Source: Chrysomallon squamiferum
Lineage: Eukaryota; Animalia; Mollusca
NCBI GenBank assembly: GCA_012295275.1
Contig: CM022670.1
Coordinates: forward strand, 13,640,001-13,704,000
Reading direction: 5' to 3'
Length of the DNA: 64,000 nt
Part shown: positions 546 to 51,859 of the stretch, piece by piece
Numbering within the stretch: the stretch's first letter is position 1
How the letters are laid out: each line of letters begins with the position of its first letter
Program-made: the position numbers and the translations under genes
The notes under the pieces: model-generated
What the model saw: only the letters and a program-made list of their open reading frames with translations
What the model was told of the DNA's origin: nothing
Database searches by the model: none

Positions 546-1650
546 ATGACAGATGGTAAGTATCATATATGTTTTTCTTTTCTTTCTTTTTTCTTATCAT
601 CAGGTTATTTATGCTAAAGCATCTCCAAAGTAATCTTTTAGATAATATGATTTAGAAATCTAAGCTTGAATGTAAATTTGTTTGTATTTATTCATACAGC
701 TCAAATTATATCTTTATATAATTAACAAAATATACTTAGAATTAAAATACAAATGACATCATTTGGTTTTATCATGAATGTTTGATTCTGTTTGGAGTGC
801 ATACAGAGACTGCTTCATCTTCCAAGTACACTGCAAAATCATTCAAAATTCACTATATTATAATTTTAAATATTTCTACTAATCACACAGTAGTTCATTT
901 TTTATTTTTTTTATTTATTTATTTATTTATTTTTACTTATTTATTTATTTATTTTATTTATTTATATTTTAATATTTTTGTCTTTTCATTGTTTTTTCTT
1001 TGGACAAACTACAAAAGATCCTTTTTCCTGAAAAAAAAATCCTCCAAATATGCATGCATCTGGCCACAAGCAGTGAATTCACAACATGGCTGTAACTTCT
1101 TTGAGATGAATGAGGCAAATGCCTCATACCAAAATTGATGATTTTTAATTATTTTTTATATTTTTTTTGTGTACAAAGATTTTATTTGAAAAATATAAAA
1201 TTTAAATCTCTATTCCAATAGAAACAATATCCACTGAATGAATTCATTTATATCTACGATTACCATTTGAAGTCTACCAACATCGTTGCAATGAAAGATG
1301 TAACCCATTTCAAAGATATCAGTTATTGCCTCATTTCAAAAACAGCCTAGTTACAGCCATGCATAAGATAGTGTTCTTCCATTTTATATACTGGCACAAA
1401 GTAAATCAAACATTTCATAAATTTTTAATTTTTTTCTTATTGTTTTTTTAATTTATTTTAGTTGATTTTATTATTATTATTTTTTTTAATTTTATTTTTT
1501 ATGTTTGAACTTATACATTTTTATTTTTCAGATGAAAAAAAGCAAATATGGGCAGACCTGGAAGAGGAATCATTTTTTCTTGGAGCTATTCCACTTCAGA
1601 AATTTAAAGTATAAATTTAATATGTCATTGTATTCAAATTTAATGATTTA

Positions 1651-1706
<56 letters not shown>

Positions 1707-1997
1707 GTATTTTTTTTATCCTATTCAATTTAAATTTCTGAATCTATATTTTGTATTTCACATGGTACCAGTGTCAAGTTTGAAACTGAAATATCTATTT
1801 GATTAAATAATATGTTAAAGTGTATTAATGTTCAACTTTAGCTTTTTACCTTAATTGTTATCTAACAACATGCCAGTCTGAATGTACAACTACAATAAAA
1901 TAAATGTCTGTATAAACTCAGATTGTGCTTATACATTATTCACAATGTGTTTGACATTTTGCTTTATTTTATTATCAGTAATTACTTTATTATTATA

Positions 1998-2051
<54 letters not shown>

Positions 2052-3492
2052 GCAAAACCTTGAACAAAGCAAGAAAGAAGTCAAGTATCTCAGCTTTGAT
2101 ACATGTGCACCAGGATACTGCACTGATGCTGTGCTCAAAATCTTAAGGGATGTTTATCTAGCAAAGGTATCTTTCTTTTTTAAAAATATAATTTGATGAC
2201 TATTTTGATTATTTTTTAATATTATATTGTCCATAATATAAAAAAATTATTGTTCGTTTTGTTTATTTTTTTTATTTTTATTTTTATTTTTTTTTTTTTT
2301 TTTTTTTTTATTTCTAAATTTATATTAAAAGGATGGACTTTAATATTTTATTAGCTTTGTGTATTATTATCAAATTTGTTATTGTAGATTAAAATGTATC
2401 AACATAGATTTATAAATATTATTTTTTCTTTTATTATTATTTTATAATATTAAAAAGGATTAATCCTAAAAACAGAAATAAAAAAAAATAATATGGATTT
2501 GGCAACTGATTCGACATTAGTTAAATCTTATTTTTAAAGAGTTCTTATAAAACAAAACTGATAATATAGTTTATAAAAGAATAAAGATAATTTTAAAAAC
2601 AAAACTCAAGAAGAGGCATATAAAATATTTTTTATATAAACATTTTAAAACTTTCAGATTAAGAAAAAGTCTAAGTACAAGAGTCAGCTATGTGAAATTG
2701 ATCTACGATGCTGTTCTCTTGTCTCTGATAATGGAATTGGATGGCTGGCAGAAATTATTTCATTTTCTCCAAACCTTACCACAGTAATTTATCTTTTTTA
2801 TTATTATTGCTTCTGTTGGAATAAATGATTTTGATATTTCTTGTCCACTTTTAAAAGATTAAAATATTTTAAATGATTGAATTTGTCTTTATTAAGGATT
2901 TGATAAAATTATAAATTTAAAAAAATATATATACATATAATTTTTTTTAACCTTACTTTTCAAATTGTGTCTCATTTAAACCTGAACTATCTGCTTTTCA
3001 ATTTATTGCTTTTATTTTCTAATGATGTAAAGATTTTGAAAAAAACAATTCATGCTTCCATGAAAATATTTTCTGTTTATACTTATGTCAGAAGTCCTAG
3101 AAAAATTAATTAATGATCACAAGTTTAATTTAGTTTACATTTCATTACTTATTTTAATTTCAGTAGTTATTAAGAATTATTTGTGGGATATCATTTTAAT
3201 GATACATGAGCAATGTAACCCCTATTTGCCTTAATTTCAGTTACTATTATCAATTTGCCCATTAAATTAAATTAATTTAATTTATTTATTTATTTTTACA
3301 TAAATTAGAGATTGTACGTTATATTTTGTTTCAGATAAAAATTGATGGGTGCACTAAGGTTACAGACTGTGGAGTTTCAGCCCTGAAAAGTAAAGGGTTG
3401 TGTGTTCACATCTCTGCCATGGCAACATCTGTGACCCATTTAAATCTTGGCAGTTCTACCAAAGGATGTCCTCTGTTGATTGATGAAAAAAA
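546..3492 (+). CDS. ROCO gene exons 1-5: N-terminus with cysteine-containing (AMN1/F-box-type) LRRs
   Basis: Exons 546-555, 1532-1608, 2053-2166, 2658-2783, 3335-3492 translate MTDDEKKQIWADLEEESFFLGAIPLQKFK...LCEIDLRCCSLVSDNGIGWLA...IKIDGCTKVTDCGVSAL. This matches the LxxLxLxxCxxITDxGLxxL LRR-CC consensus. Confidence 0.75.
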
Positions 3493-6010
3493 GTATTTTT
3501 TTTAATTTAATTAAATAGTATTGTTTGGAACTGCCCTTTTATACAAATAATTTTTTTTCATAAAGAAAACAAAGCACAAAAACTGAAATCATGTTGATAT
3601 TCCAGCAAAATTTATTTTTTCAACAATATTTGTGAATTATGTTTCTTTTTAAATATGAACTGAAAATGACTTGCCCTAAATAAAGATAATTTTATTTGGT
3701 ACATAACATGCATTATTTGCTCAGTTATTGTTTTATTGGATATATATATATGTATATATGTATGTATATATAATATATATGAAAAAAATTAAAACTGGAT
3801 ATGAATAACCATCAGGTGTTTACACACTAATCAATTTTATCAGAAGATAGAGTAAATTTAATAAAATAATTTGTTGAACATAACATAGTTGAAATTTCAC
3901 ACTTAATTTTCTTTCATATCTATTTTCTTGTTACATTTTTCCTTTGTTTCTTCATTTTCATTTCACATACACAACAGGTCAACAAAGTGAAGATTACTTA
4001 CAGTGTTATATATTAGTTGTACCACATGAAGACCTGAAAGACAGTTTTGCAGAATATCTGTATGGCAGGTCACTGGTACAGAGAGAATCCATACATCACA
4101 TCAGCAGTTGGACTCTTCAAAGCTGGAACATTGCACTTACTGAATTCCCACACAGCAATGTAAATAACAATTTACTTGCTTGCTTGCTTGCTTGCTTGCT
4201 AGCTTGCTTTACTTACTTAGCTACTTATTTACTTATGTACTTACTTTCTTCCTTCCTTTCTTTCTTTCTTTCTTTCTTTCTTCCTTCCTTGCTTGCTTTC
4301 TTCCTTCCTTCCTTTCTTCCTTACTTACTTACTTATTTACTTCTTTCCTTCCATCCTTACTTACTTACTTACTTACTTATTTACTTCTTTCCTTCCATCC
4401 TTACTTACTTACTTACTTACTTCTTTACTTCTTTCCTTCCTTCCTTTTCTTTCTTTCTTTCTTTCTTTCCTTTCTTCTTCCATCCTTACTTTTCTTCCAC
4501 TTATTTTATTTACTTCTTTACTTCCGTCCTTACTTACTTACTTATTTACTTTTACTTCCCATCATTCCTTACTGACTTATTTCCATCCTTACTTACTTAC
4601 TTTTACTTTTTCTTTCCGTCCTTATTTACTTTTTCTTTTACTTACTTACTTACTTACTTATTTACTTTTACTTTTACTTACTTTTTACTTACTTACTTTT
4701 AATTACTTACTTCCTGACATCCTTACTTCCTTCCTTACTTCCTTCCTTACTTACTTACTTATTTATTTATTATACAAGCATTCCCAAATGTATACAGTTC
4801 CTTTTTTATGTTGTGATTTCCTGGTTTATATATATGTGTGTGTGTTTTTAATTAAACAGTATTGTTTGGTCTTTGTGACATACCAGTACTCTGTTGAGAA
4901 TGCTTCAAGATATTTATATTTTGATCATAGTAGGATTTCACAAAATGAGCCACCAGTGTGTAAATCAGGGCATGTCAATATTTTTTTAAATTTTAGTTTA
5001 CATGTCTATATTCTTATACAAGTTTTTATTTATTTAGTATCTCTGTTTGTATCTGTTTATTGATTGTTACCTTTCATTCATAGTTAAGGTTAGAAAATAA
5101 TAATATCATCACTGATTTTTCCTAGGGAAAATATTTAAGTCTCTTTTCATTAATTATTTATTCTTTATGAAAAAGAAGATTAAAAAAAATATTAATAAAA
5201 AAATAAATAGAAAAATAACAATTTTATAAATCTGTTTTTGTCAAAACACTTAAAAACTAATATTTTTTTAGAATAAATGGTTATTACACTCAATAAAGAA
5301 ACAATAATGATTATTGTTTACTTTCAGCCTCTGTTTGAAAGTTTGGTACCCAAAAATCCAGTGCAAGTGTTGATTCCATTTGATGCCTCATTGGGTATAA
5401 AGCAAATCAGATCTCATATTTCAAAAACCATCACACGGATTCTGAGCAAGGTTGTATATTCTTTGTATATATGCTTTATTTTTGCATACAAATGCACAAA
5501 ACACAGATTAAGTACAGTTCTCTGCTATGAAACTTAAATATGTGCCAAGGAACATCTAAAATGGAACATCTGTGTAATATTAAATTATACTGTTGTCTTA
5601 ATATATTTATGTACTGTATGTATGTATATATATATATATTATATATATTTTAAATAAATCATTTATATACATAATCATTGCATATCTACCTAGTTTTTAT
5701 TTTATGTAAATATACACATTTCACTAGTATGAAAACTGAATGTATGTGAACATAAATAATTTTCATTTTATTATGAATACTTAAAATTATTTATTAGTGC
5801 TAAATGTTCCACATGCTAAATATTCTGTCTCTTTGCAGGAAACAGTTAACCCACCACACAAGAATTTTGACTTCAAGATTACAAACAGTGAGCTCTTTTT
5901 TGACACTCTTACATCAGCAAAGTGTGTTTGGAATCCAGATGGGATCCTCAGGTAAATCAAAATTGTGTCATACAAATGTACATTTATTTATTTATTTATT
6001 TATTTATTTA

Positions 6011-6065
<55 letters not shown>

Positions 6066-6101
6066 ATTTATGTATATATTTATTTATTTATTTATTTATT
6101 T

Positions 6102-6156
<55 letters not shown>

Positions 6157-8328
6157 TATCTTTATTTATTTTTTTTTTTTTGTTTGTTTGTTTGTTTGTT
6201 TGTTGATTGATTGTTAAAGGAAAACTCCAGTTAAATGCATTCAACAATGTTATATTACTTTTTTTTTGTTTCATGGGGCCTCTGAATTTTTTTTTTCCTT
6301 TCCTTTTGTCAGTATCATAGTGATTATGGAGGATTTTATTTTATTCTGTTATTTATTTTTTCTTTGTTTTCTTAATTATTACTTTTGCCCTGTGGTTATT
6401 CACAGACAGCATTCCAGCTAGGTGGGACCTAAAATTTCTGCATTCATGAAAGAAAGTTTATAACTTTTCTTTTGGTTCTGTTATTACTTCTAACATTAAA
6501 TAATTAAACAAGATATTTCAACTTTCATACATGCAAGGCTTATATTGGTCTAAATATTTCTTTATTTATTTCTGATTTATGTGTTAATTAATTTACTCAT
6601 TAGCTAAGTGCACTGTGAATGAATGACTGATTTATTTATTTATACAATTGTTTCTGTATTTTATATATTTATTTATTTATCAAATCATTTTATGAATAAA
6701 CATTAGTACTGAGTCAGTGTGTCATACAAAAATTCAGTAGGAAACTTTTATTTCATGTGTTTTTTGTTTTTTTCTACATTTCTTGAATTTCCAGGAGTTT
6801 GTCAACATCAGAAAGAGTGATAGCCTGCTATGTTTCGAGACAGCCACTGAGTCGAACAAACTGTTACTTTGAAATTGAGTGTCTTGCTCAGGAAGGCTCA
6901 GCAGAAGCAGGTGTGGTTCTGGGAATCATTCACGACAATCTGTTCTCCGACAGGTTTCCAATGGAATCAAACCAAAGGGATGGAGGAGCAGTTGAAGGGT
7001 TAGTGTGTGTCTGATCATAGACACTTTGTGATCGTAGACAGATGTTGCTGTTAAATGTTTTAGTCTCTTGGATGTTTCATACATTGGAGTATAAAAAGGA
7101 AGATATATTTTTGTAAATTAATAAAAATGAAGATATTGTTTTGAAAATTAATAAATTGAAAATATTGTTTTGTAAATTAATGAAAATGAAGATACTGTTT
7201 TTAAAGGAATGAAAAAGAAGATATTTTTTGTAAATTAATAAAAATGAAAGTACTGTTTTTAAAGTAATGAAAATGAAGAAATTGTTTTCACATTAATGGA
7301 AACGAAGATACTGTTTTTGTCCTATGCTGTTAGAACTGTTAATTTTGTTCCAGGTTTGTATTCCGAGTTGGTGATGTGGTAGGTTTTGGTATACATGGCA
7401 GCTGGGATTCTGAGTATGTGCCCTCCAGCAGCTGTTCATTCTACTACACAGTGAATGGTTCCAAGGTCTGTAGCAGCACCTGATACATAAACTTGTTACT
7501 GCCCAAAGATAAATAAAATAAAATAAAATAAAGCAAAGCAAAGCAAAGCAAAAGAAAGCAACAGTAATAAAATATAATAAATCAATAAGTCAATAATGGT
7601 AATAATAAAATATTAATCAATTAACAACACCAAATTCCATTATGTTATAATTTTCATTTAGTAAAGAAACATTTCAAAAATATTTTTATCTCAGTAAATC
7701 AAGGTACACATCAATACAGAATTAAAAATGTTTTTGGATTTCTGTTTTTAAGTAATAATAGGAATAGACTTAAATTATTTCTTTGATAGCATGGGTTTGG
7801 TTGTTGCTCTCACATTTTCTCTCTCTCTCTCTTTTTCTCTCTCTTTCTTTCTGTCCGTCTCTCTCTTGCTCTGTCTCTCTCTTTCTTTCTTTCTTCCTTC
7901 CCTTGCCTTCTTCTTTCCCTCTCCTTCTCCCTCCAGTTTACTTTTTTTCTTTCTTTGTATGAATGAGGGTGAAAGAAAATTAAGTGGCAGTCAGATACTA
8001 AATTTTTAAAATACACTGAAGTGTTTTTACTGTGCAGCGTGAAGACAAGATCTCAAAAGAAAAGCCTCACACTGGGATGTATCCAGTTGTTTCTGTTTTT
8101 GGCAAGAGCACAGGTGAAATCAGACTCAAGAATTATGCTTCACCTCCAGAGGTATGCCATTTATTAACACCGTGAACACACAAATCCTAGTACAATGTGA
8201 TTTTTCAGATTAGCTGAAAAAATTTGGTCAATGTTTTTCGTTTTGTATATTTCAATTATCTGAGATGACATGGGATTTGATTCAGTAATAACAACAACAA
8301 CAACACCAGCAACAACAGCAATAATAGT

Positions 8329-8364
<36 letters not shown>

Positions 8365-9364
8365 CCTTGGACAGATGAAATTAGCCAAACAGTGTCATTT
8401 AGTTTTTTTTTTCTTCTTCTAGGAACTGCAGAAGAAATGGGAAAATGAAAAACTTTACATTGAACCTGGCTTTTCTTACTGTATTTTGTGGGATGAAGAT
8501 GGAGTTTTGACGTAACTGGACATTATACACTTTAACAATATTGCACATTGCTGAAAACATCACTTTAACAAACATTTTCAGTGCTCAAAGCATATGTTTT
8601 TGATTTATCATATCCTGTAAAAATATTTTATCATAAAATTGATTCATTATTAATTTTTGTTATTAATATACATATATATATATATATAAGCAACACACAC
8701 ACACACACACACCTTTCTTATTCCTCCCTAACATAGCTAACTCATTTATGCATCTTTTTGCTACTGTGTTTGATATATATAATACATATGTTTTAAACAT
8801 ATAATGCATTTAAAACTCCTATCATATTCATCTTCTAATTCTTATAATATATCTTTCATAATATATTTTAAAAATTTATATAGATATATATATTTAATTT
8901 TTTATTTATACTAAAACCTTTTTTTTTTTTTTTTTTTCAAATGTGCTTTTAATATATTTTAGGTACACTGATAATTACAAAGCAGAAGGACATGTGGGAC
9001 TGTTTGTGAGTCAGCATCCAATTACAAAGGCCCATAACTCTTGTACCATTGAGATTCTGGGTTTTGGGAAGAAGAGATCCATAGCACTGGGAATTGGGCC
9101 AGAAGATTATAAAATAAACACTCGGCTAGGAGACGTCCTTTCATCAGTTGCAGTCTACGGAGATGGTCGATCGTAAGAGATTTGTCTTTCTATTAAATCA
9201 GAAACAATTGCTGGGAAATGCGTGCCATTTCTTGATACACACACCATAACCAAAATATGTATATATTCTGTCTCTGTTTCCATTGTTGATCCTGCCCTTC
9301 ACATATCTCCCCTCTCATATAGTTTCTTGCTTGCTTGCTTGCTTACTTAGTTACTTACTTACTT

Positions 9365-9417
<53 letters not shown>

Positions 9418-12251
9418 TTACTTACTTATTTACTTCTTTCCTTCGTTCCTTCCTTCCTTACTTACTTACCTACTTATTTTCCTATAGTCTTTGTATTTTT
9501 GATACTGTATAACTCAAACTGAACACACATTTAACAGGACTGCCTCGGAGAAAGCTTCTGAACCTTGGAAGGAAGGTGATTTTATAAAGGCTGTGGTGAG
9601 TGGTTTCAGCGGTGACATGATTGAAAGTGGTGAAGAGGTCACAGTGACATTCTACAGAAATGACCAAAAGGTGATCTTTATTTTCACTTATTAAGAAATC
9701 AATGAATGTTACATTTTAGTGGAAACGGATCCCTTTGTCACCAGTCCATGAGGATTTCTCATTGATCACTAGCAAAAGATATTTTACATGCACTTTCCAA
9801 CATAGATGATATCATTCTTAATGGCTTCCAAAAACATTATTCGTCAGACACAAGTTGGAATAAGAAATAACCCAATTTAATATATACAATTATTAAATTA
9901 TTGTTAATTTATTGATAATTCTTTTTTCTTCAATCTTCAGACCTCTTAATCATCATTAGTTCTGTTATGACTGCTACTACTGCAGATATGGCTGTTATGA
10001 TCAGATTCAAAACAGAAAAGAATCAGTATAAATGTTGTTTTTCAGTTAGAAGAAATGAACCTGTTATATAAAAAGACTGCTGGAATCCGTTGTGTTTTTC
10101 TGATAGCTATGCAGAGTGCAGATGAAAAAGTGAAGATATTAAATTTCAGAAGACCATATCAACCTAATGTTTGTATTTTGCTCATCTTATTTCATAATCT
10201 TCTTACTGGTGATGATATAATAGTTACCATGATATTCTAGTTTCCACATATAACATAATTATTTTTTTTTTAAATCCCTATTTTTTGAATTAGCATTTTT
10301 TTTCTTCAGGACAGTTAATTAACAGATGATATATAATTTTTTATTTTTTATTATGTTTTTTTATTTTTTTTTTGTTCTTAAGTGTTGAATCTAAAAAACA
10401 ATATTTCCTATATTTATCATTTCACTGTAACTGGTTAGTAAGCAACTATTAACATGAAAGTGTTTCTGTATTCTTATTAGTCTATCTCATGGTACATCAG
10501 TGTAGTATATGTTAGATGATATTCTTTAGTTAGCTTTATATATTTATTTACTTTACTCACACAATCCATTAAATAATTCTACTACAAATTACTTTTATTT
10601 CAGCCATTGGCTGATGACAAACTGACCATGGGAAGATGCAACTACATCAACGTCTACGACGATGGGACACTGACATATTAGTGAGTTATTTGAAATCTTT
10701 GATTGGCCAGAAGTAAATAATCTAATATATATCAGATATTCTCATTCTGAAAGAATGTTTTAAACAATGTACATAATCTGATGTCACAGGCAGTGTGTAA
10801 GACTGAACAAAAAAAAAAAAATGTATCTTTCTGATTATTTGATAAGTACTTAAATGAAGCTGAGTTTTCAATTACAGCCTGCAGTCTGTTAAAAGCTGTG
10901 GATCAGTTGTGGTCATTGTTTTGTTAATTTTTTTTTTTTTTTTTTATGGGAAAGGAATGTTAGCTTTTTTTATATATTTCTCTTCTTTTCAGTAGTGAAG
11001 ACACAAAATTAATGACTTGTTACAAACAACAGAGGAAATAAAATATACAACAACCTTTTTTTTTTCCACAGTTTCTTAAAAATGATTTGCTTTATTTGTC
11101 AGTGTATTAATAATCCTTTTCAGCAAATTCAACAAAGAAAAGCCATTTGGTTTGTACGTCTCCAAAACACCTATTTCTAAAAGTCTGCCTTACTTTGAGA
11201 TGAAAGTTTTGAAAATACACACAGATAAACATGTGGGAATTGGACTTTGTCACCGAAACTACAAGATTAATGAAATGCCAGGCTGGCTGGGAGGATCGAT
11301 TGCCTATCATGCAGACAATGGACAGTGAGTTTATCAGCTAATTTAATTAACAAATATGTTATTATTGCTTTTTTTATTATGTTGAATTAATGTTATTAAA
11401 AATTGTTTAATAATATTATTAATGTTGACAGTTATTTTTTCTTTGAAAAAATATTGATTATTATTATTAATATTGGGGTTGTTGTAGTTTTTGTTGTTAT
11501 TACAATTCTTATTCTTATTATTCTTGTTATTATTGTAATTATTGTTATTATTATTATTACTGAAAGAATGACTAGAACATAATGTTTCATTTACTAATCG
11601 GCTCTGTATCTTGTTTTTGTTTAATATTTAAAATATTAGCTAATTAACAAGTGTATTAACAAGTGTATTAATTAGCACTGTATGTATTAGTATATATATT
11701 CTTTTATACCTGATATTGTAAAATGCTTTTAAAATAATTTTTTTAGAAAAGGCTCGTAATACTACTACTATATGCAGTAGACTGGTTCACTGAAAACATG
11801 TCAAATGAACTGGATAAAGATTAGTGATTCAAAAAACAAATATATAGCTTGAATGTTGATTCTGTAGATAAGCCACTGAAAGATAATATTTAAAAAAAAT
11901 AATAATAAGAATTAAAACGAATGGAAAATAAATATAAAATTATTATTATTTTTATTGTTATTATTATTATTATTATTATTATTTATTATTATTATTTTCC
12001 TTTCAACAGGTTATACATGAATGCATCTGCTGGCTTGAAGACTTTGGAAATGGACACTGATAAACTTATATATGGTGAAGGAGATGTGGTTGGTTGTGGG
12101 GTGGAGGCAGTTTGTGTGGGAAAGAAACTGAAACCTCAGCAGACCATCAAAGTCTTCTTTACCAAAAATGGCACAAGGGTGGGTACAAAAACATTTCAAA
12201 ACATCTGTAACCATAAAAATAAAATAATTAAAAAATATAATAATAACAATC

Positions 12252-12296
<45 letters not shown>

Positions 12297-14345
12297 GTAA
12301 ATTTATGAAAACCTAAAGGCATGGAGAAAGTATATCAAATCATTGCTGAAGTGTATGATTTATTTCACAACATTTCATGTTTAATTAATTTGTCGGGACA
12401 CTTTATTATTAGCAAACCTTGGTTACGAGCAGAAAATAAGTCAGTAGAGAATACTAACTTAAATGTTTTTAGAAACCATTTATACATCAGATGTATAAAG
12501 TACAATTAATCCAAAGTTATTATAACATGGCACTTTGTCCATACAGCATATATAATTAAATTACAACAGTGATGCAGTTTTAACTATGATGCAGTCTAAA
12601 AGGTGATGAAATACGAAGAGAAACTGTTGCTGTTATATCTTTATTTTGGATTATCAAAAAAGCTGTTAATTATTCTTGTAAAAAAGAAAAAAAGAAGAAA
12701 AAGATGATGTCTGTTTAGTCATCATGTTAATGTTTGATCCTGAAATGTCCTCCAGATGCCTTTGAAATTCCTTTTTTTTTTTTTTTTTTTTTTGGAATGG
12801 GTCATTTAAAGTGAGATGAGATGTTCTTAAATATTTATCTGTTTTGATCTGTTTCAGATACATGAATATGAAATGGAATACAACATGGATGGTTTATATC
12901 CCTGTGTTTCTTTACACTATGAAACAGACAAAGTCCAGCTCTACAACTTCTCCTCTGCCTGCCATACAGTGGTTTGTCTGTTTGCACTACTAGTACCAGT
13001 ATAATTATGATTTGTCTGTTTATATTACTTCACTGTATCATTTGTCTGTTTATATTTACCTTTGTGTATCATTTGTCTGTTTACATTTACCTTTGTGTAT
13101 CATTTGTCTCTTTACATTTACCATTGTGTATCATTTGTCTGTTTACATTTACCTTTGTGTATCATTTGTCTCTTTACATTTATTTTGTGTATCATTTGTC
13201 TCTTTACATTTACCTTTGTGTATCATTTGTCTCTTTACATTTACCATTGTGTATCATTTGTCTGTTTACATTTACTATTGTGTATTATTTGTCTGTTAAC
13301 ATTTACTATTGTGTATTATTTGTCTGTTTACATTTTTCTTTGTGTATTATTTATCTGATTAGGGTATTATTTTATTTGTTTTGTTTTTTTCTACTATTTG
13401 TCTCTTAATTATATTTATCTTTGTCATATCCACACCAAAAGCTTGACATCAGTTACCTGGTTTTCTGAAAATTAAACAAACCTCCCCAGTTAGCCAGCCA
13501 TCTTTTGTCATTTAAGGAATATCAAGACATTTGGTAATTCAGACATTTGGTAACTCTTTCAGGAAAAATCAACATTAAACAATCAGTGTGTTGATAACCC
13601 AGAAGAAGAATCTCCTAGCACTGATACCCAGACTGAAGGTTGTCATTTCCTCGTTGTTGCTGTTGGCGATGGGTCGTGTGATCCAGCAGAAAAGATAGCG
13701 ATGGTGAAACAGAGCCTTGATCTGTCGAGGGATCTCGATCTAGTGGGAGATCTCGAGAAGGAAATAAAGGAATTAGAAAGGTACAGTTTGATATGGCTGT
13801 GTATGTCTTTGTCTGTGTGTGGAGATTGTTGTTGTCAGTATGATCGTAGATGATCGGAACAGTCCCTGTTTGAGACTCCATGCAAATCCAGATGTTTTTT
13901 AAAATGTATCATACAGTAAAGTATTTTTGAATTAAATTTGTTACTGCTATCGTACACTGTTACTTCTATCGCATCAGGTTTTTAATTTATTATATATATA
14001 TATATATATATCTGAGCAATAAATATATATATATAGATATAAGAAAAAACAATACAGTCAGCTTTGATAATAAAATGCAATTTGTTCTAAATGTTTATGT
14101 AGTTGTATCGATATTTGTTAGAGAAACAAGTTACATTTTACTAATAACCTACTTTTATTCAGTGTAACAGAATTATCTGTTTTTAAGATGGCATTTTTCC
14201 CCTTTTTTTTTATCTGTTCTTTCTGTTTGATTTTAAACAGTCATATTTTGGAGTTTTGTACATCTGTAATAACCATAATAACAGCAATAACTATATACTG
14301 AGACAAATAAAGATGTGTATTTTGTGTGTGATTGTGTGTGTGTGT

Positions 14346-14392
<47 letters not shown>

Positions 14393-14437
14393 CATACACA
14401 TACATAAATACATATATATTATAGAGAGAGAGAGAGA

Positions 14438-38563: not shown

Positions 38564-38607
<44 letters not shown>

Positions 38608-39246: not shown

Positions 39247-39305
<59 letters not shown>

Positions 39306-42300: not shown

Positions 42301-42609
42301 GATTAGTTGAATATAGTTGTCTAGAATATCTAGGGGCATGTTATTTTAAATACATGTACATATAATATGTCATTTATGTGTATTTTGCACAAACATATAT
42401 ATACAAGTCAGTCTGTTTATGTGTACATTATGAATGTGTGGCTATATTTGTCATCCATGTGTACCTGTGTGTCTGTGTAATCAGTATTAATGTGTGCATA
42501 TGTTTGTATATACACATGCACACACATGTATGTATATATACACATACACACACATACATACATAAATACATGCAACATATATATATGTGTGTGTGTGTCT
42601 CTGTGTGTG

Positions 42610-42688
<79 letters not shown>

Positions 42689-43007
42689 ACATTTATTTAT
42701 TTATTTATATATTTTTAGGTTGTTGTTGCGCTGCTGTCTGACAACTTTGAGGGTGACAAGGAGAAGTGTGCAGATATGTTGTGGTATGCTATGGACGGTT
42801 TGAAAAAGCCCTATGTGATCACAGTGATAACAGAAAGCCTTGCATGGCAGGACACCGACCTTGGTATGAAGATCGGAAAACAGGAAGTAAGGAAAATAGC
42901 TATTAATTATTGTTAACAAATACATTGTTTACAGTAATGAAAATGTTTTTGTATGTTTTTATTTAGATTACTTTTATAATGTTTTAATTTAAATACTTAT
43001 TTATTGT

Positions 43008-43041
<34 letters not shown>

Positions 43042-43815
43042 CTTATAAATTAGGCAGTCATTTAAACAATTTTTAGTACCCATTATATGTTCTTTTTAAA
43101 CAGGGTGGAATCTTTTAGAACTGTTTTGGGTTGGAACAAAAGTTCACAGAGTTTTTAAGTGAAATCTAAAGACAATATTTAGATATTTTTACATACATTT
43201 TATTCACTGACATATCTGCCATTTTATTAACATTTCAGAACATGTGTATGTATCATTCACATTTGGAGCAAAATCACATGTCCAAGCACCAGTTGTTGAA
43301 AAACACTACTAATGTATTGTAGCCAACTATTATGGAATGCACATTACTTCTGACTGTATATTTATTGAATTAAATACTTGCTGTGGATTAGACAAAATGT
43401 TAAATAAACCATACTCCATTAACATAAATTTCCATTGCAGTTGATGGTCATGATAAAAAATGAGTCTCGCTACAAAGACAAAGTGAAGGATCTTTTTGAT
43501 ATTGTCAGAGACAGACTTACTGAACTAAATAAAAAGGTGTGTAATCCCTTACTTTTTATTGCATCTCCTGTGTAATACAAACGGTTTTACACTGACTGAT
43601 ATATCACGTAATTACCCAGTCATGTAATGTCAGATTGTAACATACGAATGAATGTGATTTGACAATGCCTTGAAACAATTTATTATTACTAGTATTACTT
43701 ATATGATTCTTGTATAATGTACAGATTTTTTATGATATGGGGATCCCAATGATTTGTATAATATCATTTAATAAAATGGATTCTTTATATATATATACAC
43801 ATACACATTCATACA

Positions 43816-43859
<44 letters not shown>

Positions 43860-44904
43860 TATATAATATATAGATAGATACATAGATAAATAGATAGATA
43901 TATTGTTGAAAAAGAAAGCACTTACTGTGGACTCTGAAGAAAGGGAAATATCCTGAAGAGAAAACTCAGAAGGACTGATCTTGCAGTCTTTCATATTTGT
44001 AACATTTATAATCACAACAGTAAACCAATATGAATACAAAATACTAAATAACAAAAACCCCAAAAACAAATTTTAATAATCATAATAATTTGTGTATTTT
44101 CTTATTTTCACGATGACAGGAAACCAAGGACACTCCGACATGCTTTGTCAGTTACTCCTGGTCAAACTCCAAAGACGCAGTCGAGAAAGGAACAAAACCT
44201 AAAGAAGGTTCAGTTGGATGGGGCGATCCTCGTGTGATAAAGAAACACCTTGAAGACAGCGGTTTTTCTACGTGGATTGACTACGAGAAAACAACCGGTG
44301 GAGTAAGTAAACATGACAGTTATTTACATTCTTTCACATCACAAACATGTTTATTCTACGTTTAGTTACGCATATATAATGCAGATTTGTTACGTTCATT
44401 GGAATTAATTTTCAGTCGAGAAGTCTTGTATGATGACTGATTTTGTTCACGTTTAATATTTTTATTGCTATTATTATTATTATTGTTTATATTATTGTTA
44501 TTTTTATTAGTAGTAGTTGTGATGGTGGTAGTAGTAGTGGTAGCAGTAGTATTGTGTGCATTGCATGGTTACATATGTTTTCATTATAATATTTTATTAA
44601 TGATGTGTAAGATTTGTACTTGATGAATATTGGAATAAAAGATGAATTGACAAACAATATTCAGAGTCCAACCCATGTGTATCTATTAGTATATACATAT
44701 AATTTATTACTCACTGACACACAAATCTGGAACAAAAATAATGATGATGATGATGATGATATAATAATAGCAATGATAATAATAAAATATATTTTTTGTA
44801 GGGAGGTGGTTTGTTTCAAAGATTGGCAAGTGCAATTCGACATACTAAAGTTTTTATTGCTTGTGTTTCAAATGAGGTGAGGGTTTTTTCTCTGTATTTT
44901 CTTT

Positions 44905-44940
<36 letters not shown>

Positions 44941-47900
44941 TTCTTTTGATTATGTAAACATATACACCTGTTTGTCAAAATATATGTGCCTCTGTTTTTC
45001 TGCGTTTTTTCATTCACTCACATTTGTTCATACACACTTATTTGCACATGGATACCTGATATATACACATTCCATCCTAAATATAAACAAACACTAAGAG
45101 AAATATAAACACAACTCTTTTTTCTTTACTACATTTAATGTGTGTACAGTAGCACTATCAAAATCCACTCAACTCAATTTTGATGCCGCTGCATAAGTGT
45201 ATATATTATTTCATTATTTTTGATAATATTTGAAAGAATTGATTTTTTTTTTTCTTGTTGTAGTATGCTGAGTCAGAAAACTGCATGATGGAACTGAGGT
45301 TTGCGGTTCTTAACATTGACTTACCCATCATTCTGTGTGTTGTTGGCACCAACAGAGGCTGGGATACATCTGAGGTAAATGTAAACCAAAACAAACAAAC
45401 AGCAGAGTATAATCCAGTTTATCATAATCATAATAAACAAATTAAAAATGTAAAATATATTTCAATGCAATAGTTTATTTATCATCATTTTCAACATTTC
45501 TCATCATCAGAAATAAATGTAAATTAAAAACATTTACATTATCATCATTATCAAAAAAACCCACACCAAAACCCTTGTCATTTTTGGATTTTCAACATCA
45601 TTCCCAGATGTTGGTTGAGTAATTAATTGCTTGTTTGTTTTTTCATCTCTTCAAACTGACAGATTGGCATTCTGAGTCAGAGATCAAAAGCAGCAAGGGT
45701 GTATTTTCAGAAGGAGAATCCTGAAGCTTTCAACACTCTGATAGATTTTGTGAAGCAAGCAATCACATCAAGAAACCAGAAAGCAGTGTCCAAGAAAAAG
45801 ATAGCCAAATTAGAGAAGTCGGAGCTAAAGAAGAAACAAGCTGCTAAGATGACCAACATTTCATTTCAGGTGATTGTCAATTGTTACTTAGATATTCTGT
45901 GCTTTTGTGTTGAAAAGATTGTTGCTAAATTGAGATTGTTCAGAAGATGGTAAATGAGTTTAGTGAAATCACTATAGTAAAAACTATTAATTTTATGATC
46001 AATATGAAAAATCTTTTTGTTAAAATTATAATAAAATGGTTTTTTGATGACAGTAATAAAAGGTGTTGTTACCAATTAAGATAGTAAATGGGATTGAAGG
46101 AGATTACACCATCAGATTTAAATCCATTTAAAACTTTATTCTTTCATGATAAATAAGTTGTATCTTCTTTAAAACTGATAACCAGTATTTGACTGTATTA
46201 TCAATTTAATATGACAAATTTTGACCTCCTAGATTTTGTCATGGATATATACACAATCTATTAAAGCCAACAAATATGTATTATCAATTTTAAACAAAAA
46301 AACAAGCAGATGACATTTTGCTTCACAAAAGCACATTTATAAACAAAATGCTGGATATTCTTGGAGAAAATAATTTACTTTAAAAAGTACCCCACCTACA
46401 CATATGAACTTAAAATGCATTATATTTTTTTTTTCTTGTATCACAGGAGGAATATGAGCTGATCCAGAGGAAGTTTATGCGTCATATTATCTCCTTTACC
46501 AGCCTCTCTGACTCGAGTCCCATGCCTCGGTTAATTGTTTTAGACTTTGACGTGAAAACTGAAACGTGTCTGAGACACAATCATCCAGCCAGGGACAGTC
46601 ACAGCCTGAGACCAACTTCACGTAAGTTGATTTGAGAAACAAGAAAATGTTCAGTGTACTTTATCAGACAGGAGCAAAATTACATAAATATTCTTTTTGT
46701 TTTTTAATGCTATCAGGTTATTGTTATATTTGCTTTGGGTTAAAGAATATATATATATCTTGGTTTTAATAAAATACATATATATATTTATATATTATCA
46801 ATTCAATTTAAAAAAAAAATACATTTATATTTTTTTTTTTTTAATGCTATCATTATTGATTTTGCAATTAAAGAATAAATATCTTTATATATATATAGAA
46901 TTATTCATTTATTATTTACAAAAAATTTAAAAATATTTTGGAATTATTCATTATAGTTTCAAAACAATTCATAGTTTCATACATTCATTTCAAAATAAAA
47001 ATGCAGTTAGAATTTTTTTAATTAATTATTATTATTTAAAAAAATTATGATTAAATTTATTTGCAGTTGGAAGAACAAATCTGAATATAACATCTAGTAA
47101 GTAGTTGTTGAATAGATTTAGACATCTTATTTCCAAATTTCAGTAATACAACTTCATCAGTGGGATTTTTTTATTTTCAACATTATTCCTTATGGTTTTT
47201 CCTGAAAAATATATTTTGGTTTACAAGCAGAATTAATGTCTTCTGGTTATAGCTAGCTAATTTTTCATTCATAACTAAGTTGTAGTTTAATAATAGTTTA
47301 CTTAACTGAAATGCAATGGATCACAGGTTCAGTCTTACTTAGCATATATATTCCTTGTATTTCATTTTGTTTCATTGAAATTCTTAATAAAAATTTGTGG
47401 AAAGTGCTTTCCTGTTTCTGGGAGTGTGCACATAAAATATACTTTGAAGCTAATCATAAGAATAACTGACAGTGGTAGTAACAGTTTTCCTCTCATTTCA
47501 TTATTATTAAGATATGAAAGTCATACATGTAACATCTAAATGATCTTTAATGTTATTAACTAAATCTTTGTTTATTCAGTTTATAACTGTAAAGTTAAAT
47601 AAAATAATACTTTTAAAATGTTGATCTTATTGCTGTTTCTTAATCATATTTTAATGACTATAATAATAAAATAATAATAATAACAATAATAACAAAACTA
47701 ATAATTAATAATAATAATAATAATTCAAATTTCTATTTAAAAAAATAAAATTAATATTCATATTAGAAAAATACTGTGAAAAGATCATCAAGAATTATGC
47801 ATATTATTTCTTTTTTGTCTGTTAATAATGTAATTATCCTTTCAGATCTGAAATTGAAGTCAAAATTATCTTCTGTGTCTAGAGGATCTTCTACTTTTGA

Positions 47901-48618
47901 TGGTAAGATGAGGTTGCTTTTCTAAGCAAAAATAAGTTTTCTGTTTTTCTGCCTCTGGTCCATAATTATTTTCTCAGAGGTGATAGGCCACAGCATCTGT
48001 CTTGTCTTTTATGTCATTTGTAAAATATTTAAACCAAAACCCATTAATTTGCTTTTGTCAGAGGCACTTAGGGGGGTTTTGTTTTTGTTTATGTAAAAGG
48101 TGTATATAATATTATATAACACAGCCCTTGTTGCTAGCTGAACAGAAAAGCCAGGAAAAGTAATTCAGCAGCTTTCACTTTTCTCACACTATCATTATGT
48201 ATAAAATATATTTTTGACACTTAATAGCAAATAGTATCAACATGTGTTGAGATATCAATAAATATTCTTACTTTCATTTGGCTGGAAATATCTTGTTTTC
48301 TTAACACATGAAGAAATGTATATATATATATTTTTTAAATCATATTATTTATTAACAAGCAAAAAGAGGTGAAAAATAATTTTTAAAATGAATTAATATG
48401 CACATGATAACTATATTATAAAATATCAAATTGTGTAATGTTTTTGTTTATTTGAACAGAGCTGTCTGAAGCGTCATCACCAACTTCTGTACCCATGCGC
48501 GGTATTCGACCCAAAGCGCTTACAAGATCTAGAGATAAAATGGAGGTCAGAGTTCATTGTAACCAAATTAATGCTGTACATTAAAATGAACATAACATAT
48601 TCATATGGTTTGTTATAA

Positions 48619-48655
<37 letters not shown>

Positions 48656-49150
48656 GCAGATGCCCAGATGTTTTATATGAAAATATTGCAGATTGCCCCA
48701 GGATTCTGTATTTTATAACACATGTCTAAAGTATTATTTCAGAAATTCTAGTGGGTAAACTGATATCCAAAAAAACATTTATTTATTTATTTATTTATTT
48801 ATTTGTTTGTTTGTTTGTTTACTGATGTCTAATTTTAGGGATATTATTATTATTTTTTTTTTAAAAAACCCAGATTTTTTAACCAAAGATACAAAATACT
48901 AGAATTTCTGATCTTTTCTTATTAAAAAATTGTAATAATAATATTAATTTATTGCAGCCTTTTATTTTGGATGACGAGAGTGAGAACTGGGAACTGGAAA
49001 ACTTTTGCATTAAGATTCTATGTGAACATGAAGAGGTGAGAGAAAATATTGCTATCCAGAAATTTAAAGTGTATGCTGGTACATACAAATGATGTAAATT
49101 GAAATGTATATCTATTAAACTAATTGATTGATTTGTTTCTTTTACATGCA

Positions 49151-49189
<39 letters not shown>

Positions 49190-51485
49190 TTTTGCATATT
49201 AACTACAAATTGGTCTTTGCTGTCAGTAAAATGTTACAATAAAACAGCAGGATAAATTATGAGGACAGACAGCTGCTGAGTTTTCACTAGTTTTATGATG
49301 TCATTTTGAAACTGAAAAAAAAAATGCTTCACATGGACTACAAGTATGATAGTCTTGCAATGACCTTCTGAAACTGTTTGTTTGTTTTGAGTGTTTGTGT
49401 GGGATTTTTCATTAGGTAGAAGTTAATTGTAAACATTTCCAGATATATAAATCCACTTCTTGTCAAAAGACATTTGGTGCTAACTGATAGATCATGTTGT
49501 ATTACGATTTTAACACATTTCTGTTTATTTTAGGGATGGCACGAAAGCAAGAAGTCATACCCATTTAGAAAGGGTGATGACTTTTTTGATACAATGAGAA
49601 AACTTGCACCCTACTTGTTCCGGCTGTACTGTATTTTGAAGCAGAGTTCAGTTCAGCTGAACTGTTTTGTTGGTGAAAGAGGCAGGAAGTTTCATGAGTG
49701 GATTGATAAGGTATGCATCAACCTGGTACAGTATGCAACAAAACTATGTCTAATTTCATGTGTATAAACTGAGAAAAGTAAAACTAGATATACTTTAAAA
49801 AAATAATAATCAACAATTCAGTTTTAATGTTTGTTAGGTTTCAGATGTAATTCTGATTATAATAATGTTATGTGAGAAGAAATCTTTTGCTTTGTTTCAT
49901 AGGTTAATGTTTTTTATTAGCATCACAACATATTTTGTGTGCAAGATTGTTAGTTAGGTACGTTAATAAGCCAGCTGAGCAGAATCATCTGTAACAAGAG
50001 ATGTGTCTAGCTATGTTTGGCAAAATGTAGTTTTGAAAATTCCTTGTCACAAAAGAACAGCACCTAGTGTGTTGTATGGTGTGCTGCCTTTTTAATACTA
50101 TATTACAAAATTCTATTAAATCTTTATATTGGCAAGGACATGTTCACTCAGGTTCATACAATGTAAATGTATAATGCACTTTCGACAAAATAAAATGAAA
50201 GTAGGACTATTTCATGGTAAATGAATGCATTCAGAAAACAATAATTTATAACAACAGGAATCTCAACACATCGATTTCCTGGAATCATTCAAAGCTATTA
50301 GAGAAATTCTTGCTGATGATAATGAAGCTGCTGATTTTCTAGGACAACTCTGCAGGTTAGTTTTTAATTTTTTGTGTTGCTGAAACTTGAGGTTTATTTA
50401 AATACACAGCATCTCAGGAGCAGAACAACATTTGATGGACTACGGAAATTATACTTAGAATGGATCATCAGTGCATTCTGATCATTCCTCTAAGATGAAA
50501 GAATCTGGAATAACTTTAATGATAATAAATTATAAGTAATTAATTTTGACTTAAGCTTTAAGATAACACTGGGTACATTTTTGCAAGTAGAAGAGGTGAA
50601 AAAAAGTTGTTATAAATCTAAAGAATAAAGTGTTTAATGTTTTACACCAGGTATTTAATCTGGTTTGATACACGATGAGGTGTCACTAATTTCAGATGTC
50701 GTCTACCCAGTGGAAAGGTCTACTGGTTATGTGAGGAGCATCAGTCTGGTCCTAGAATCACCAGACTGAGTCCAGATACAGGCACCAGTAAGAATCAACA
50801 TAGAGTTATCTTCCCTGAAGACACTGCCATGAAAGAAATGTTGGAGAAGTCCGATATCTTTAAGAAACGAAAGTTAGAAAAGTCAAAATCAGTAATCAAA
50901 CTTCCTCCAGCAAGTAATGGTGAGCGAACTATGTAATAATTTTTTTTTTCTGATTTCTTTAATTTTATTTTTCACATTCAAATTCAGTATTAATTAATAA
51001 ACATTTGGTTTTATAATAAACTTTATTATCAACATGTTTTTCCCTTGATACTGATAGCTGTTATGTGTGAATCCTATAGCTTTTGTACGCTGAAATTTGA
51101 GAGGGTTTATTATTTAGTTCTACTGTATGTAATAGTTAAGTGATCTTTCATATTGACTTTATCACAGATGTGAAAGTACATCCAGGTCATCTAGTTATTT
51201 TTGTTGTTGACACTACACTGGTGATGGTAGTGTAAATGTTACTATTATTATTTTTTTTTTTTTTTTTGTTAATTTAAGCTGATGTCATTACAAGCCTACC
51301 AAGAAAGATTTCTGTGAAGAATGAGGATAAAACAAGACAAAGTGCTTTGAATCTGCTGATGCTGGCTTCAAGTGAGTCAAGAAAGATTTGTTTTTCAGAA
51401 TAACAGTAAATTTATTTCTTTGTTTATTCATTTATTTATTTACTTATAAACATTTAAACAAACTTATTTATAATTTCGATTTAGA

Positions 51486-51525
<40 letters not shown>

Positions 51526-51859
51526 TTTTTATTTATTTTTTCACAGCTTCAAACCTGACTCACACAAGTCTGGTAAACTGACAAAGACTCATCCAACGAC
51601 TGGATCCAGAAAACTGTCCACGTTTGACAGTGTTAAAAACCCCACACAGAAGACTGTGGCCTTCTCCGTCGCAGATTCTGAAATCATTGGTGACACTCTT
51701 CCTGCCAGAACAAGTGACTCTGCCTCAGACAATTTGGCATCACTCAGAAACCCCCAGCAGCAGCTGCGTGCAGCTGCAAATGTGGCTGCAATAACAGCAG
51801 CAGCAGCAGCAGCAACAACTGCTCAAAAGTCAGGGAGCAAAACTTGTGAAATTCAGTAG
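546..51859 (+). CDS. Giant multi-exon double-ROCO gene (LRR-pseudoRoc[3xSPRY]-COR-CysRich-SPRY-MSP-Tudor-like-LRR/EF-Roc-COR-TIR-TIR-Cterm-CaaX), about 81 coding exons, about 3,900 aa
   Basis: Manual splicing of GT-AG exons gives a phase-consistent chain from ATG 546 (in-frame TAG upstream at 492-494) to TAG 51857-51859. All introns are under about 1.2 kb and there is no intergenic gap. Exceptions: frameshifts at about 31209 and about 33813, and phase mismatches at 3492/3978 and 51371/51547. Modules are listed separately below. Confidence 0.8.
3978..5450 (+). CDS. ROCO gene exons 6-7: N-terminal half of a degenerate (pseudo) Roc domain
   Basis: Exons 3978 (or 3988)-4159 and 5328-5450 give CYILVVPHEDLKDSFAEYL (aligns to KLMFVGxxxxGKTSLLKAL), WNIALTEFP (aligns to YNTWDFAG) and PVQVLIPFD...SKTITRILSK (beta4-alpha3). 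GTPase motifs are degenerate. Confidence 0.55.
4170..4770. repeat. Compound (TTAC/TTCC/TTTC/TTGC)n microsatellite block in an intron
   Basis: Visible tetranucleotide arrays; they generate the spurious L/T/Y/F/S ORFs 3944-5063. Confidence 0.9.
5839..12971 (+). CDS. ROCO gene exons 8-19: three tandem SPRYD3/RanBPM-type SPRY domains
   Basis: Exons 5839-5951, 6795-6998, 7354-7465, 8038-8151, 8423-8511, 8963-9172, 9538-9670, 10046-10168, 10604-10680, 11124-11324, 12010-12178, 12858-12971. SPRY1: YVSRQPLSRTNCYFEIE...GDVVGFGI...YYTVNG...MYPVVSV. SPRY2: VGLFVSQHPI...IALGIG...FYRND. SPRY3: YFEMKVL...VGIGLC...MPGWLGGSIAYHADNG...GDVVGCGV...VFFTKNG...LYPCVSL. Confidence 0.85.
7090..7320. repeat. About 29-bp degenerate tandem minisatellite
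   Basis: Repeated unit approximately AAAATGAAGATATTGTTTTGTAAATTAAT. Confidence 0.75.
13005..13350. repeat. About 30-bp tandem minisatellite
   Basis: Unit approximately TGTGTATCATTTGTCTGTTTACATTTACCT, about 11 copies; source of ORFs 12974-13408. Confidence 0.9.
13563..17401 (+). CDS. ROCO gene exons 20-26: C-terminal half of pseudo-Roc plus first (divergent) COR domain
   Basis: Exons 13563-13780, 14539-14671, 15288-15518, 15884-16069, 16232-16360, 16724-16934, 17210-17401. Motifs: CHFLVVAVGD (G4-like), HFLAVNTNTGQGYDDLVSTI (G5-like), AVKFLHKKGQLVYL...LALDMEFV (COR-A, compare AIQFLHELGTVQYF...VVINPQWI in module 2) and FW...RCYKFANGLPPSLL (COR-B). Confidence 0.7.
17988..19197 (+). CDS. ROCO gene exons 27-29: Cys-rich motif and linker
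   Basis: Exons 17988-18202, 18484-18632, 19032-19197. Exon 27 encodes CSHDW...VCTMCNLCCDSGIDCKWSGIMGQYLRECCCGTKVNGCRQCGICKRCADELW. Confidence 0.8.
18670..19010. repeat. Degenerate, about 30-bp tandem repeat
   Basis: Recurring TTATTACTGTCAGACT...TTAATTGT units. Confidence 0.65.
20021..22166 (+). CDS. ROCO gene exons 30-33: fourth SPRY domain (SPRYD3-like)
   Basis: Exons 20021-20225, 20954-21074, 21489-21609, 22047-22166: VGQFCAAQPL...ISIGLCHKRY...QPGWASSSIGFHADDG...GDKMTC...VIFYHND...MYPIVGLHSEGEVVRLL. Confidence 0.85.
21571..21945 (+). repeat. About 97-bp tandem repeat (4 copies) containing the exon 3' end and splice donor
   Basis: GACAGAAGTAAAGTTATATTTTAYCACAATGACAAACARGTACATCTTCAT... starting at 21571, 21668, 21765 and 21860. 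Confidence 0.92.
22523..24999 (+). CDS. ROCO gene exons 34-38: MSP (major sperm protein/VAP)-like Ig-fold domain
   Basis: Exons 22523-22578, 23122-23212, 23694-23796, 24145-24256, 24915-24999: LWISPGHTLHL...WLLLHNPSKDLIGFMITAN...YTGYLEPHKSRCIRL...HSLKVTI. Resembles the MSP consensus LxIxPxxxLxF...LxLxNPSxxxVAFKVKT...GxIxPxxSxxIxV. Confidence 0.6.
25517..30311 (+). CDS. ROCO gene exons 39-47: Tudor/MBT-like segment, charged linker and unassigned globular region
   Basis: Exons 25517-25660, 25944-26002, 26527-26722, 27150-27417, 28039-28097, 28325-28421, 28966-29154, 29635-29791, 30249-30311. All are open and phase-compatible. They include FQKGMRMVAQLYENVYAECMIVSVSEDNQTLALEY...VRTDSEVIQL and an E/K-rich linker. 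Confidence 0.7.
26008..26400. repeat. 32-bp tandem minisatellite (about 12 copies)
   Basis: Unit TATTACCGTACAATAAACAAGTCAGCTTATGT; starts immediately after the donor at 26003. Confidence 0.93.
30714..33624 (+). CDS. ROCO gene exons 48-52: LRR array with inserted EF-hand, ending at the Roc P-loop
   Basis: Exons 30714-31468 (+1 frameshift at about 31209), 32013-32116, 32364-32487, 32751-32948, 33459-33624. LRRs include LQELHYLDLSFNPLTDLPIEFGEL and LNLRVLSLTNNPLLESLPGSLGHL. The ROCO cap is CPSLCTPPNEVVSRGFESVKAYL, followed by KLMFVGLGGAGKT. Confidence 0.9.
33459..40371 (+). CDS. ROCO gene exons 52-63: intact Roc GTPase and COR domain
   Basis: Exons 33459-33624, 33788-33958 (-1 frameshift at about 33813), 34415-34561, 35080-35169, 35505-35611, 35922-36003, 36694-36840, 37369-37542, 37932-38030, 38760-38854, 39541-39691, 40254-40371. 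G1 GLGGAGKTS, G2 ITDGI, G3 WDFAGQTLYYNTHQFFLS, G4 VVGTHCD, G5 FISSVQGKGIAEL. COR motifs FLHELG, INPQWI, VPCLLP, YLPAGLFNR, IWKRG, VPCPDC. Confidence 0.92.
38905..39325. repeat. (GT)n-rich block with internal duplication of about 155 bp
   Basis: GTGTCTGTTGTGGGTGTGTATGAGTGTGTGTATGATG...TATAAATATGTG occurs at about 38970 and about 39123. Confidence 0.8.
41295..45869 (+). CDS. ROCO gene exons 64-71: two tandem TIR (TIR_2-like) domains
   Basis: TIR1 from exons 41295-41490, 42117-42183, 42719-42886, 43441-43536: DVAILYS...KNDLEKEKFSVWF...GIKNSKVVVALLSDNF. TIR2 from exons 44120-44302, 44802-44876, 45264-45374, 45663-45869: CFVSYSW...KHLEDSGFSTWID...LFQRLASAIRHTKVFIACVSNEYAESENCMMELRFA. Confidence 0.88.
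41510..41710. repeat. (TTTTA/TTCTA)n pentanucleotide microsatellite
   Basis: Directly visible. Confidence 0.9.
46447..51859 (+). CDS. ROCO gene exons 72-81: Cys/His C-terminal domain, low-complexity tail, CaaX-like end
   Basis: Exons 46447-46621, 47067-47096, 47846-47902, 48460-48545, 48958-49035, 49534-49710, 50258-50355, 50696-50919, 51279-51371, 51547-51859: MPRLIVLD...FCIKILCEHEEGWH...LAPYL...LCRCRLPSGKVYWLCEEH...SGSKTCEIQ*. Confidence 0.75.

Follow-up and report, generated by a model that had tools for sequence, protein, structure and literature searches.

Roc-COR units, the GTPase modules of ROCO proteins, dimerise through COR and switch state with the bound nucleotide. In LRRK1, LRRK2 and the Roco protein of Chlorobium tepidum, CtRoco (PDB 8e05, 7lht, 6hlu and 3dpu), leucine-rich repeats (LRR) are followed by Roc, COR-A and COR-B, and the same order and fold occur twice in a predicted protein of the mollusc Chrysomallon squamiferum. 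Its gene lies in a window of 64,000 nucleotides (assembly GCA_012295275.1, contig CM022670.1, positions 13,640,001 to 13,704,000), the whole stretch analysed here; coordinates below are window positions on the + strand. Like the three described proteins, the second unit of the window protein carries the motifs G1 to G5. The window protein differs from them in several respects: a single chain contains two units, of which the first lacks these motifs, SPRY domains lie within a Roc, a TIR-TIR pair replaces the kinase, and there is a CaaX end. For ROCO proteins, the available text of PMC6337361 describes COR-mediated dimerisation and nucleotide-dependent cycling between monomer and dimer.

Parts of this layout have been noticed before. 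In the accessible part of Civiero et al. 2014 (PMC4104024), Trichoplax TRIADDRAFT_57945 (P0091 in our set) is said to have a 'Ras-like domain N-terminally of ROC', called novel and intriguing; that text proposes the domain as the active output, treats it as placozoan and does not name it a second Roc-COR. The protein belongs to the same family as the window protein. Pfam finds two Roc and two COR-B stretches in it, and among the bilaterians covered here the front unit has degenerated. The sections seen of Kron 2022 (PMC9334734) list Aplysia LOC101848126 and LOC101845043 as 'TLRs with ROCO domains', and those of van der Burg 2016 (PMC5094078) give the back-half architecture for actiniarian Novel Gene 1. 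All three combine an LRR-Roc-COR-TIR back half and either MBT or EF-hand, the actiniarian gene being likened by its description and not by sequence. In the same sections, both papers provide domain lists only, mentioning no second Roc-COR, Glu-less TIR or CaaX end. LOC101848126 (P0088) is a paralogue that holds part of the front unit. Prokaryotic AP-GTPase-COR counter-invaders, as presented in the available portion of Kaur et al. 2021 (PMC8195603), combine an LRR sensor, a Roc-COR switch and a C-terminal effector, as the window protein does. Searching by locus ID returned no more than two papers, both already cited, and no description of a tandem LRR-Roc-COR was met in the literature searched, with subscription papers, including Marin's ROCO surveys, outside the search. 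The claim of an undescribed architecture, made in an original prediction from the window's letters alone, therefore stands for the full layout in that literature; it does not extend to the back half, which had been catalogued, and two GTPase domains had been seen in the accessible part of Civiero 2014. The double-ROCO layout has apparently gone unrecognised as a family-wide one.

The front half opens with LRR block 1 (1532..3492), cysteine-containing repeats common to the family. A pseudo-Roc follows in two parts, the first running from beta1 to alpha3 without G1, G2 or G3 (3978..5450) and the second comprising beta5, a helical insert with a conserved Gln, beta6 and alpha5 (13563..15330), and then a degenerate COR-A and COR-B (15288..17401). 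In molluscs this unit escaped Pfam both in single-exon scans and in scans of orthologues, which gave one Roc/COR stretch only, and a back-unit profile detected the front unit in merely 5 of 105 at E<1e-3. Since these tools are largely blind to the front unit, a reverse search and a profile-profile comparison were needed. With the SPRY insert removed, a front-unit profile matched 98 of the 105 back Roc-COR segments at E<0.01; against the 105 reversed segments it gave no match. These rows exclude four proteins in which no G1 could be located. Alignment of 88 front with 105 back units by hhalign gave 97.8-98.7% with E-values of 7e-13 to 4e-16 (including 98.4%, E 4.3e-15), against 0.1% for a reversed template. 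The pseudo-Roc (E 1.2e-4), COR-A (1.4e-7) and COR-B (1.3e-8) each matched only their own counterpart.

An AlphaFold model of the front 747 residues of the Lineus orthologue (P0043), standing in for the window protein, reached a predicted local distance difference test (pLDDT) of 80 and a predicted template modelling score (pTM) of 0.83. In Foldseek, its top 30 ranks are all LRRK1, LRRK2 or bacterial and archaeal Roco proteins (best E 3e-13). It aligns with LRRK2 over 418 residues (Z 17.5, root-mean-square deviation [rmsd] 4.3), and its residues 163-369 align with KRAS over 150 (Z 14.3, rmsd 2.9). Judged by profiles and by this predicted structure, the front half is a genuine LRR-Roc-COR in homology and fold. 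The outcome named as a refutation of the original prediction, an N-terminal region that is not Roc-COR, is contradicted by the profile-profile match and by the likeness of the Lineus model to LRRK1, LRRK2 and CtRoco.

The loss of GTPase motifs claimed for the first module is confirmed. The active-Roc motifs (the G1 P-loop after beta1, G3 DxxG and G4) are missing from unit 1 of the window protein, where VVPHEDLKDS, TEFPHS and VAVGD occupy the G1, G3 and G4 positions. Across the family, G1 is found at beta1 in only 1 of 88 front units, that of Trichoplax (GNRGVGKST, with GTHAE as G4). Because G1 is so rare, yet 63 of 76 other family members preserve the front unit, the fold appears to be retained without catalysis. 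Mean identity among orthologues is 29-35% for the pseudo-Roc versus 70% for the back Roc. The helical insert (14539-14671) has its Gln in 76 of 88 rows, frequently within a DFxGQ string that resembles G3/switch II. We disfavoured an alignment that assigns G1 and G3 to the later half of this domain, since in Trichoplax G1 lies at beta1 and G4 at beta5, and since model residues 163-369 superpose on whole small GTPases.

The back unit is intact. LRR block 2 (30714..33560) contains an inserted EF-hand-like loop in exon 32364-32487, with a Pfam score below the cut-off, and an extra base at 31208. The Roc (33560..35611), one base short near 33816, reads GLGGAGKTS (G1), TDG (G2), WDFAGQ (G3), GTHCD (G4) and SS (G5), and passes directly into COR-A and COR-B (35505..40371), which is the ROCO order according to per-exon Pfam and orthologues. 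Over the family, G2 is present in 105 of 105 back Rocs, G3 in 104 and G4 in 97; these rows were chosen by G1, so a count for G1 would be circular. The full G1-G5 set predicted for the second module can thus be read in the window once the frame break at 33816 is bridged, and the tandem of two LRR-Roc-COR units is borne out by Pfam for the back one and by profile and structure for the front one. In the live Roc, a W-x-x-R-x-G string that follows beta4 (34415-34561) holds an Arg conserved in 104 of 105 rows and absent from LRRK1 and from the dead Roc. This Arg is a candidate arginine finger and may be the equivalent of CtRoco Arg543.

The two halves are one gene. Our model, hand-built with a small exon-chaining script and then corrected against orthologues, comprises 79 coding exons (546..51859) encoding 3,859 amino acids, with GT-AG borders at 78 of 78 introns and no internal stop. 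In a tblastn search of 28 orthologues against the raw window, 69 of the 79 exons were matched, the other ten being short or poorly conserved exons and both ends; the 16 exons spanning 22047-31208 give an open, stop-free reading of 765 amino acids. Exon 30714-31468 is the sole very long one (755 nt), with a G+C content of 50% versus about 28% for the window, which is AT-rich animal DNA. A profile of this exon retrieved ten proteins, including Physella XP_059158979.1 (P0004); its colinear alignment with the window protein (49%) extends from the MSP domain as far as the tail and therefore covers 27-33 kb. A search for longer forms, with 1,123 candidates, returned 12 proteins, of which one is from Owenia, one is an unrelated LRR protein and ten are mollusc orthologues, 3,709-4,167 amino acids long. 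A Logan contig of 14,147 nt encodes one orthologue (P0017, 3,800 amino acids); judged from its length, this contig is probably a spliced transcript. A single chain with the front-unit start, the front COR and the back Roc-COR was found in 19 of 109 large proteins, a Logan-derived one among them, many of the rest being truncated models or distant paralogues, and it is on these 19 that the unity of the gene rests. A pair of adjacent genes, with the boundary near 22-23 kb or, as the original prediction had proposed for its refutation, near 27-31 kb, would account for the Physella and Nucella (P0026) models that start at or after the MSP domain. We regard this as extremely improbable, given that the Physella protein runs colinear through 27-31 kb, that the 19 relatives hold both halves and that the exon chain is open at both proposed split points.

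The chain predicted at 546-51859 was recovered, with 79 rather than about 81 exons, and it is not fully phase-consistent: there are two or three breaks of one base each. One base is added at 31208, and one is short at about 33816, a position that in the live Roc falls between G1 and G2. The third break, at 3492/3978, is a phase gap that could also be closed by a weak alternative acceptor. As the extra base at 31208 is missing from a depth-37 contig of an independent run of the same organism (X5), the breaks are most likely assembly errors; the other two are located at A-runs. RNA runs X1-X3 gave short fragments of exon 30714-31468 at depth 3-4, none over 31208, too thin for expression or splicing. 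The breaks could also be signs of a decaying pseudogene in Chrysomallon squamiferum, but this is very unlikely in view of the X5 contig and the A-runs, of 3,859 codons without an in-frame stop and of a back Roc-COR 78% identical to that of Haliotis. Candidate exons 3606-3698 and 4860-4955 were dropped, their counterpart being missing in the 11 displayed orthologues; the former, offering a G1-like KIILFG, would also require two frame breaks. With the acceptor at 24145, neither a frame break nor a micro-exon of 5 nt is needed at 23796/24102.

The twin layout is not confined to the window protein. A third search, restricted by length and score, yielded 108 proteins at E<=1e-60 among 5,024 candidates; under that restriction, no cnidarian, arthropod, echinoderm or vertebrate name was among them. 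Outside the orthogroup, the front-unit profile matched the 63 of 76 proteins and none when reversed. The matched proteins come from Trichoplax, rotifers, annelids, Lingula, Ptychodera and Branchiostoma; of the 13 misses, six, all among the shorter models, gave no match at all. On these profile matches, the twin layout is an old trait shared across a little-studied family that reaches from placozoans to amphioxus, and the proteome search suggested with the original prediction finds this layout recurring from Trichoplax to Branchiostoma. FastTree analysis of 65 of the 105 back Roc-COR rows placed the window protein in a 13-row gastropod group (SH 99) within a 30-row mollusc clade (SH 100), which adjoins nemertean and Owenia proteins. 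Automatic labels on family proteins read 'LRRK1', 'MFHAS1' or 'serine/threonine kinase'; despite the kinase-type labels, no kinase domain was detected in those scanned. An Owenia protein (P0022) carries at residues 1-190 an additional intact Rac-like GTPase (Pfam Ras, E 2e-52), giving three G domains, and its gene model might be a fusion. The sequence MARTKQTARAS at its N-terminus resembles the histone H3 tail.

The window protein continues into two TIR domains, as predicted, and Pfam TIR_2 gives two stretches in six of seven relatives scanned. TIR NADases require a catalytic Glu. TIR2 (44120..45869) has it in SENCMMELRF, and the residue is present in 100 of 100 rows, its position being set from the CxxE pattern and not from structure. 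TIR1 (41295..43536) lacks it, the column being mostly hydrophobic (L 40, M 29, I 18 and H 2 of 100). TIR2 is predicted to cleave NAD+. The part of a preprint available to us (bioRxiv 10.64898/2026.04.20.719644) reports Glu-dependent production of cyclic ADP-ribose (cADPR) by animal non-TLR TIRs, with mollusc, rotifer and lancelet TIRs among the producers; in that part, its Fig. 3 legend on active TIRs names Roc and COR among the domains, without a visible protein identity. Behind TIR2 lies a conserved domain (46447..50919), which has no Pfam match and matches 73 of 80 members outside the orthogroup. CaaX motifs lead to prenylation, and the chain ends in the CaaX-like CEIQ and a stop (51845..51859); a Cys at position -4 is shared by 87 of 108 family proteins. 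The CaaX end, the TIR1 Glu loss, the EF-hand-like loop and the family-wide twin layout are features absent from the original prediction. A possible additional exon at 51297-51373 (ADVITSLPRKISVKNEDK...), ahead of the last exon, was excluded because it leaves a phase gap.

Other domains are set inside and behind the dead unit. SPRY1-3 (5839..12971) interrupt the pseudo-Roc between alpha3 and beta5, and SPRY4 (20021..22166) is a copy in common with nemerteans: in full-length orthologues from Mytilus and nemerteans, SPRY4 is the sole SPRY and SPRY1-3 are absent. The four predicted SPRY domains, three of them within the dead Roc, match one another by profile (0 with a reversed model), in agreement with Pfam, and SPRY4 matches 2yyo with Z 24.5. 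A Cys-rich motif (17988..18510), the best-conserved piece of the front half at 54% mean identity, probably binds Zn. The motif is real and conserved, whereas the MYCBP2 likeness originally ascribed to it drew no match in Pfam or PDB searches. The MSP-like domain (22523..24999) was substantiated on the Haliotis orthologue, whose immunoglobulin-like MSP fold matches that of MOSPD2 (Z 15.7, rmsd 2.5, 125 aligned) and of VAP-A (Z 12.4). The Tudor/MBT-like beta-barrel (25944..26722) is weakly supported: hhalign against the family MBT gave 74% (E 2.7e-5) over 27 columns only, and a Pfam scan found no match. An acidic linker and a conserved domain follow (27150..30311); the domain, at 27380-30311, has no Pfam match and matches 39 of 80 members outside the orthogroup. 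The description of the dead module as loaded with borrowed domains is corroborated by paralogues that vary the cargo in or behind the same unit. An MBT profile matches 31 family proteins and none in the SPRY group, some paralogues have PLAT or C2 in precomputed Pfam annotation, Trichoplax has SH3/Tudor and Owenia the Rac-like GTPase. The intron after exon 21489-21609 contains degenerate tandem copies of that exon's 3' end and donor (21489-21930), and a 31-nt tandem repeat follows exon 25944-26002 (26000-26400). The next gene begins at 58782-64000 (+) with a HIRAN domain (E 2.6e-8) and an SNF2 motif (E 1e-5) and is HLTF/RAD5-like helicase in type.

The analysis establishes a single gene, the fold of each unit, which unit has lost and which has kept the motifs, and the family-wide spread. 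We consider it plausible, though somewhat short of probable, that the dead unit, with its binding domains, restrains the live Roc-COR-TIR of a prenyl-anchored GTP switch until a ligand releases it. The CaaX end would be prenylated and anchor the switch at a membrane; the dead unit would pair with or restrain the live Roc-COR in cis; ligand binding to SPRY and other cargo domains would release the live unit; and the freed TIR2 might cluster and cleave NAD+, the trigger possibly being immune. Several observations weigh against this. About 1,350 residues separate the two units, and the dead COR has 24-35% mean identity among orthologues against 65-70% for the live COR, a difference as compatible with a loose scaffold as with a tight cis interface. 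Late in the pseudo-Roc, a G1-like string occurs in 4 of 75 rows and a G3-like D[FY]xGQ in 9 of 75, so that some pseudo-Rocs may still bind nucleotide; the window's own has neither the late G1-like nor the DFxGQ string. The SPRY orthologue broadly tracks the species tree in few copies, unlike diversifying NLR sensors. The CaaX end and MSP domain fit membrane traffic equally well, and no infection data were found. Presence of the Glu is no proof of activity, as the accessible text of bioRxiv 10.64898/2026.04.20.719644 illustrates with the TIRs of TLR2, IL-1R9 and IL-1R10.

The poor conservation of the dead COR would also suit a rather doubtful alternative, in which the dead unit is no more than a rigid platform, presenting binding domains that localise the protein or capture substrates, and the live Roc-COR dimerises in trans, without contact to the dead COR. 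The live-Roc Arg (104 of 105), with no dead-Roc counterpart, would fit live-live dimers if it equals the CtRoco arginine finger described in the portion seen of PMC4721548, but the complete LRR-Roc-COR-A-COR-B geometry kept from placozoans to chordates exceeds what a passive linker needs. A non-immune, LRRK2-like scaffold for membrane traffic or organelle stress, with TIR2 giving a cADPR/Ca2+ or NAD+ signal, seems unlikely. It would draw on the CaaX end, the MSP fold, the EF-hand-like loop and an orthologue conserved at low copy across molluscs; it sits poorly with paralogues that exchange cargo domains and with the bacterial LRR-Roc-COR-TIR, a predicted counter-invader layout in the available text of PMC8195603. 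Restraint of the live Roc-COR-TIR by the dead unit could, more broadly and with considerable doubt, define an ancient animal receptor class, spread from placozoans to amphioxus, in which a tandem ROCO duplication left a pseudo-GTPase front copy that mimics a dimer partner in cis, collects lineage-specific sensor domains and controls a TIR NADase anchored at the membrane.

Plant paired NLRs with integrated domains place a degenerate NTPase copy with variable domains beside an intact executor. The window protein resembles them in logic alone, being of a different NTPase class, a single fused chain and a slow-evolving orthologue, and Pfam scans of 14 relatives found no NACHT or NB-ARC ATPase. Going by its domains, it may act like an NLR (STAND) receptor but is not one. 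Nor, by domain order, does it have the layout of a Toll-like receptor, since its LRRs run straight into the GTPase in the order LRR-Roc-COR-TIR. The control of ROCO output by the Roc-COR dimer is still debated for LRRK2, according to the part of PMC6337361 consulted; with one live and one dead Roc-COR in the same chain, the role of the partner unit becomes directly testable. For TIR NAD+ signalling gated by a GTPase, hitherto predicted mainly in bacteria, the family is an animal candidate. If restraint by the dead unit is true, these proteins would be the ROCO counterpart of paired sensor-executor NLRs and would offer a natural locked Roc-COR heterodimer for the study of LRRK2-type activation.

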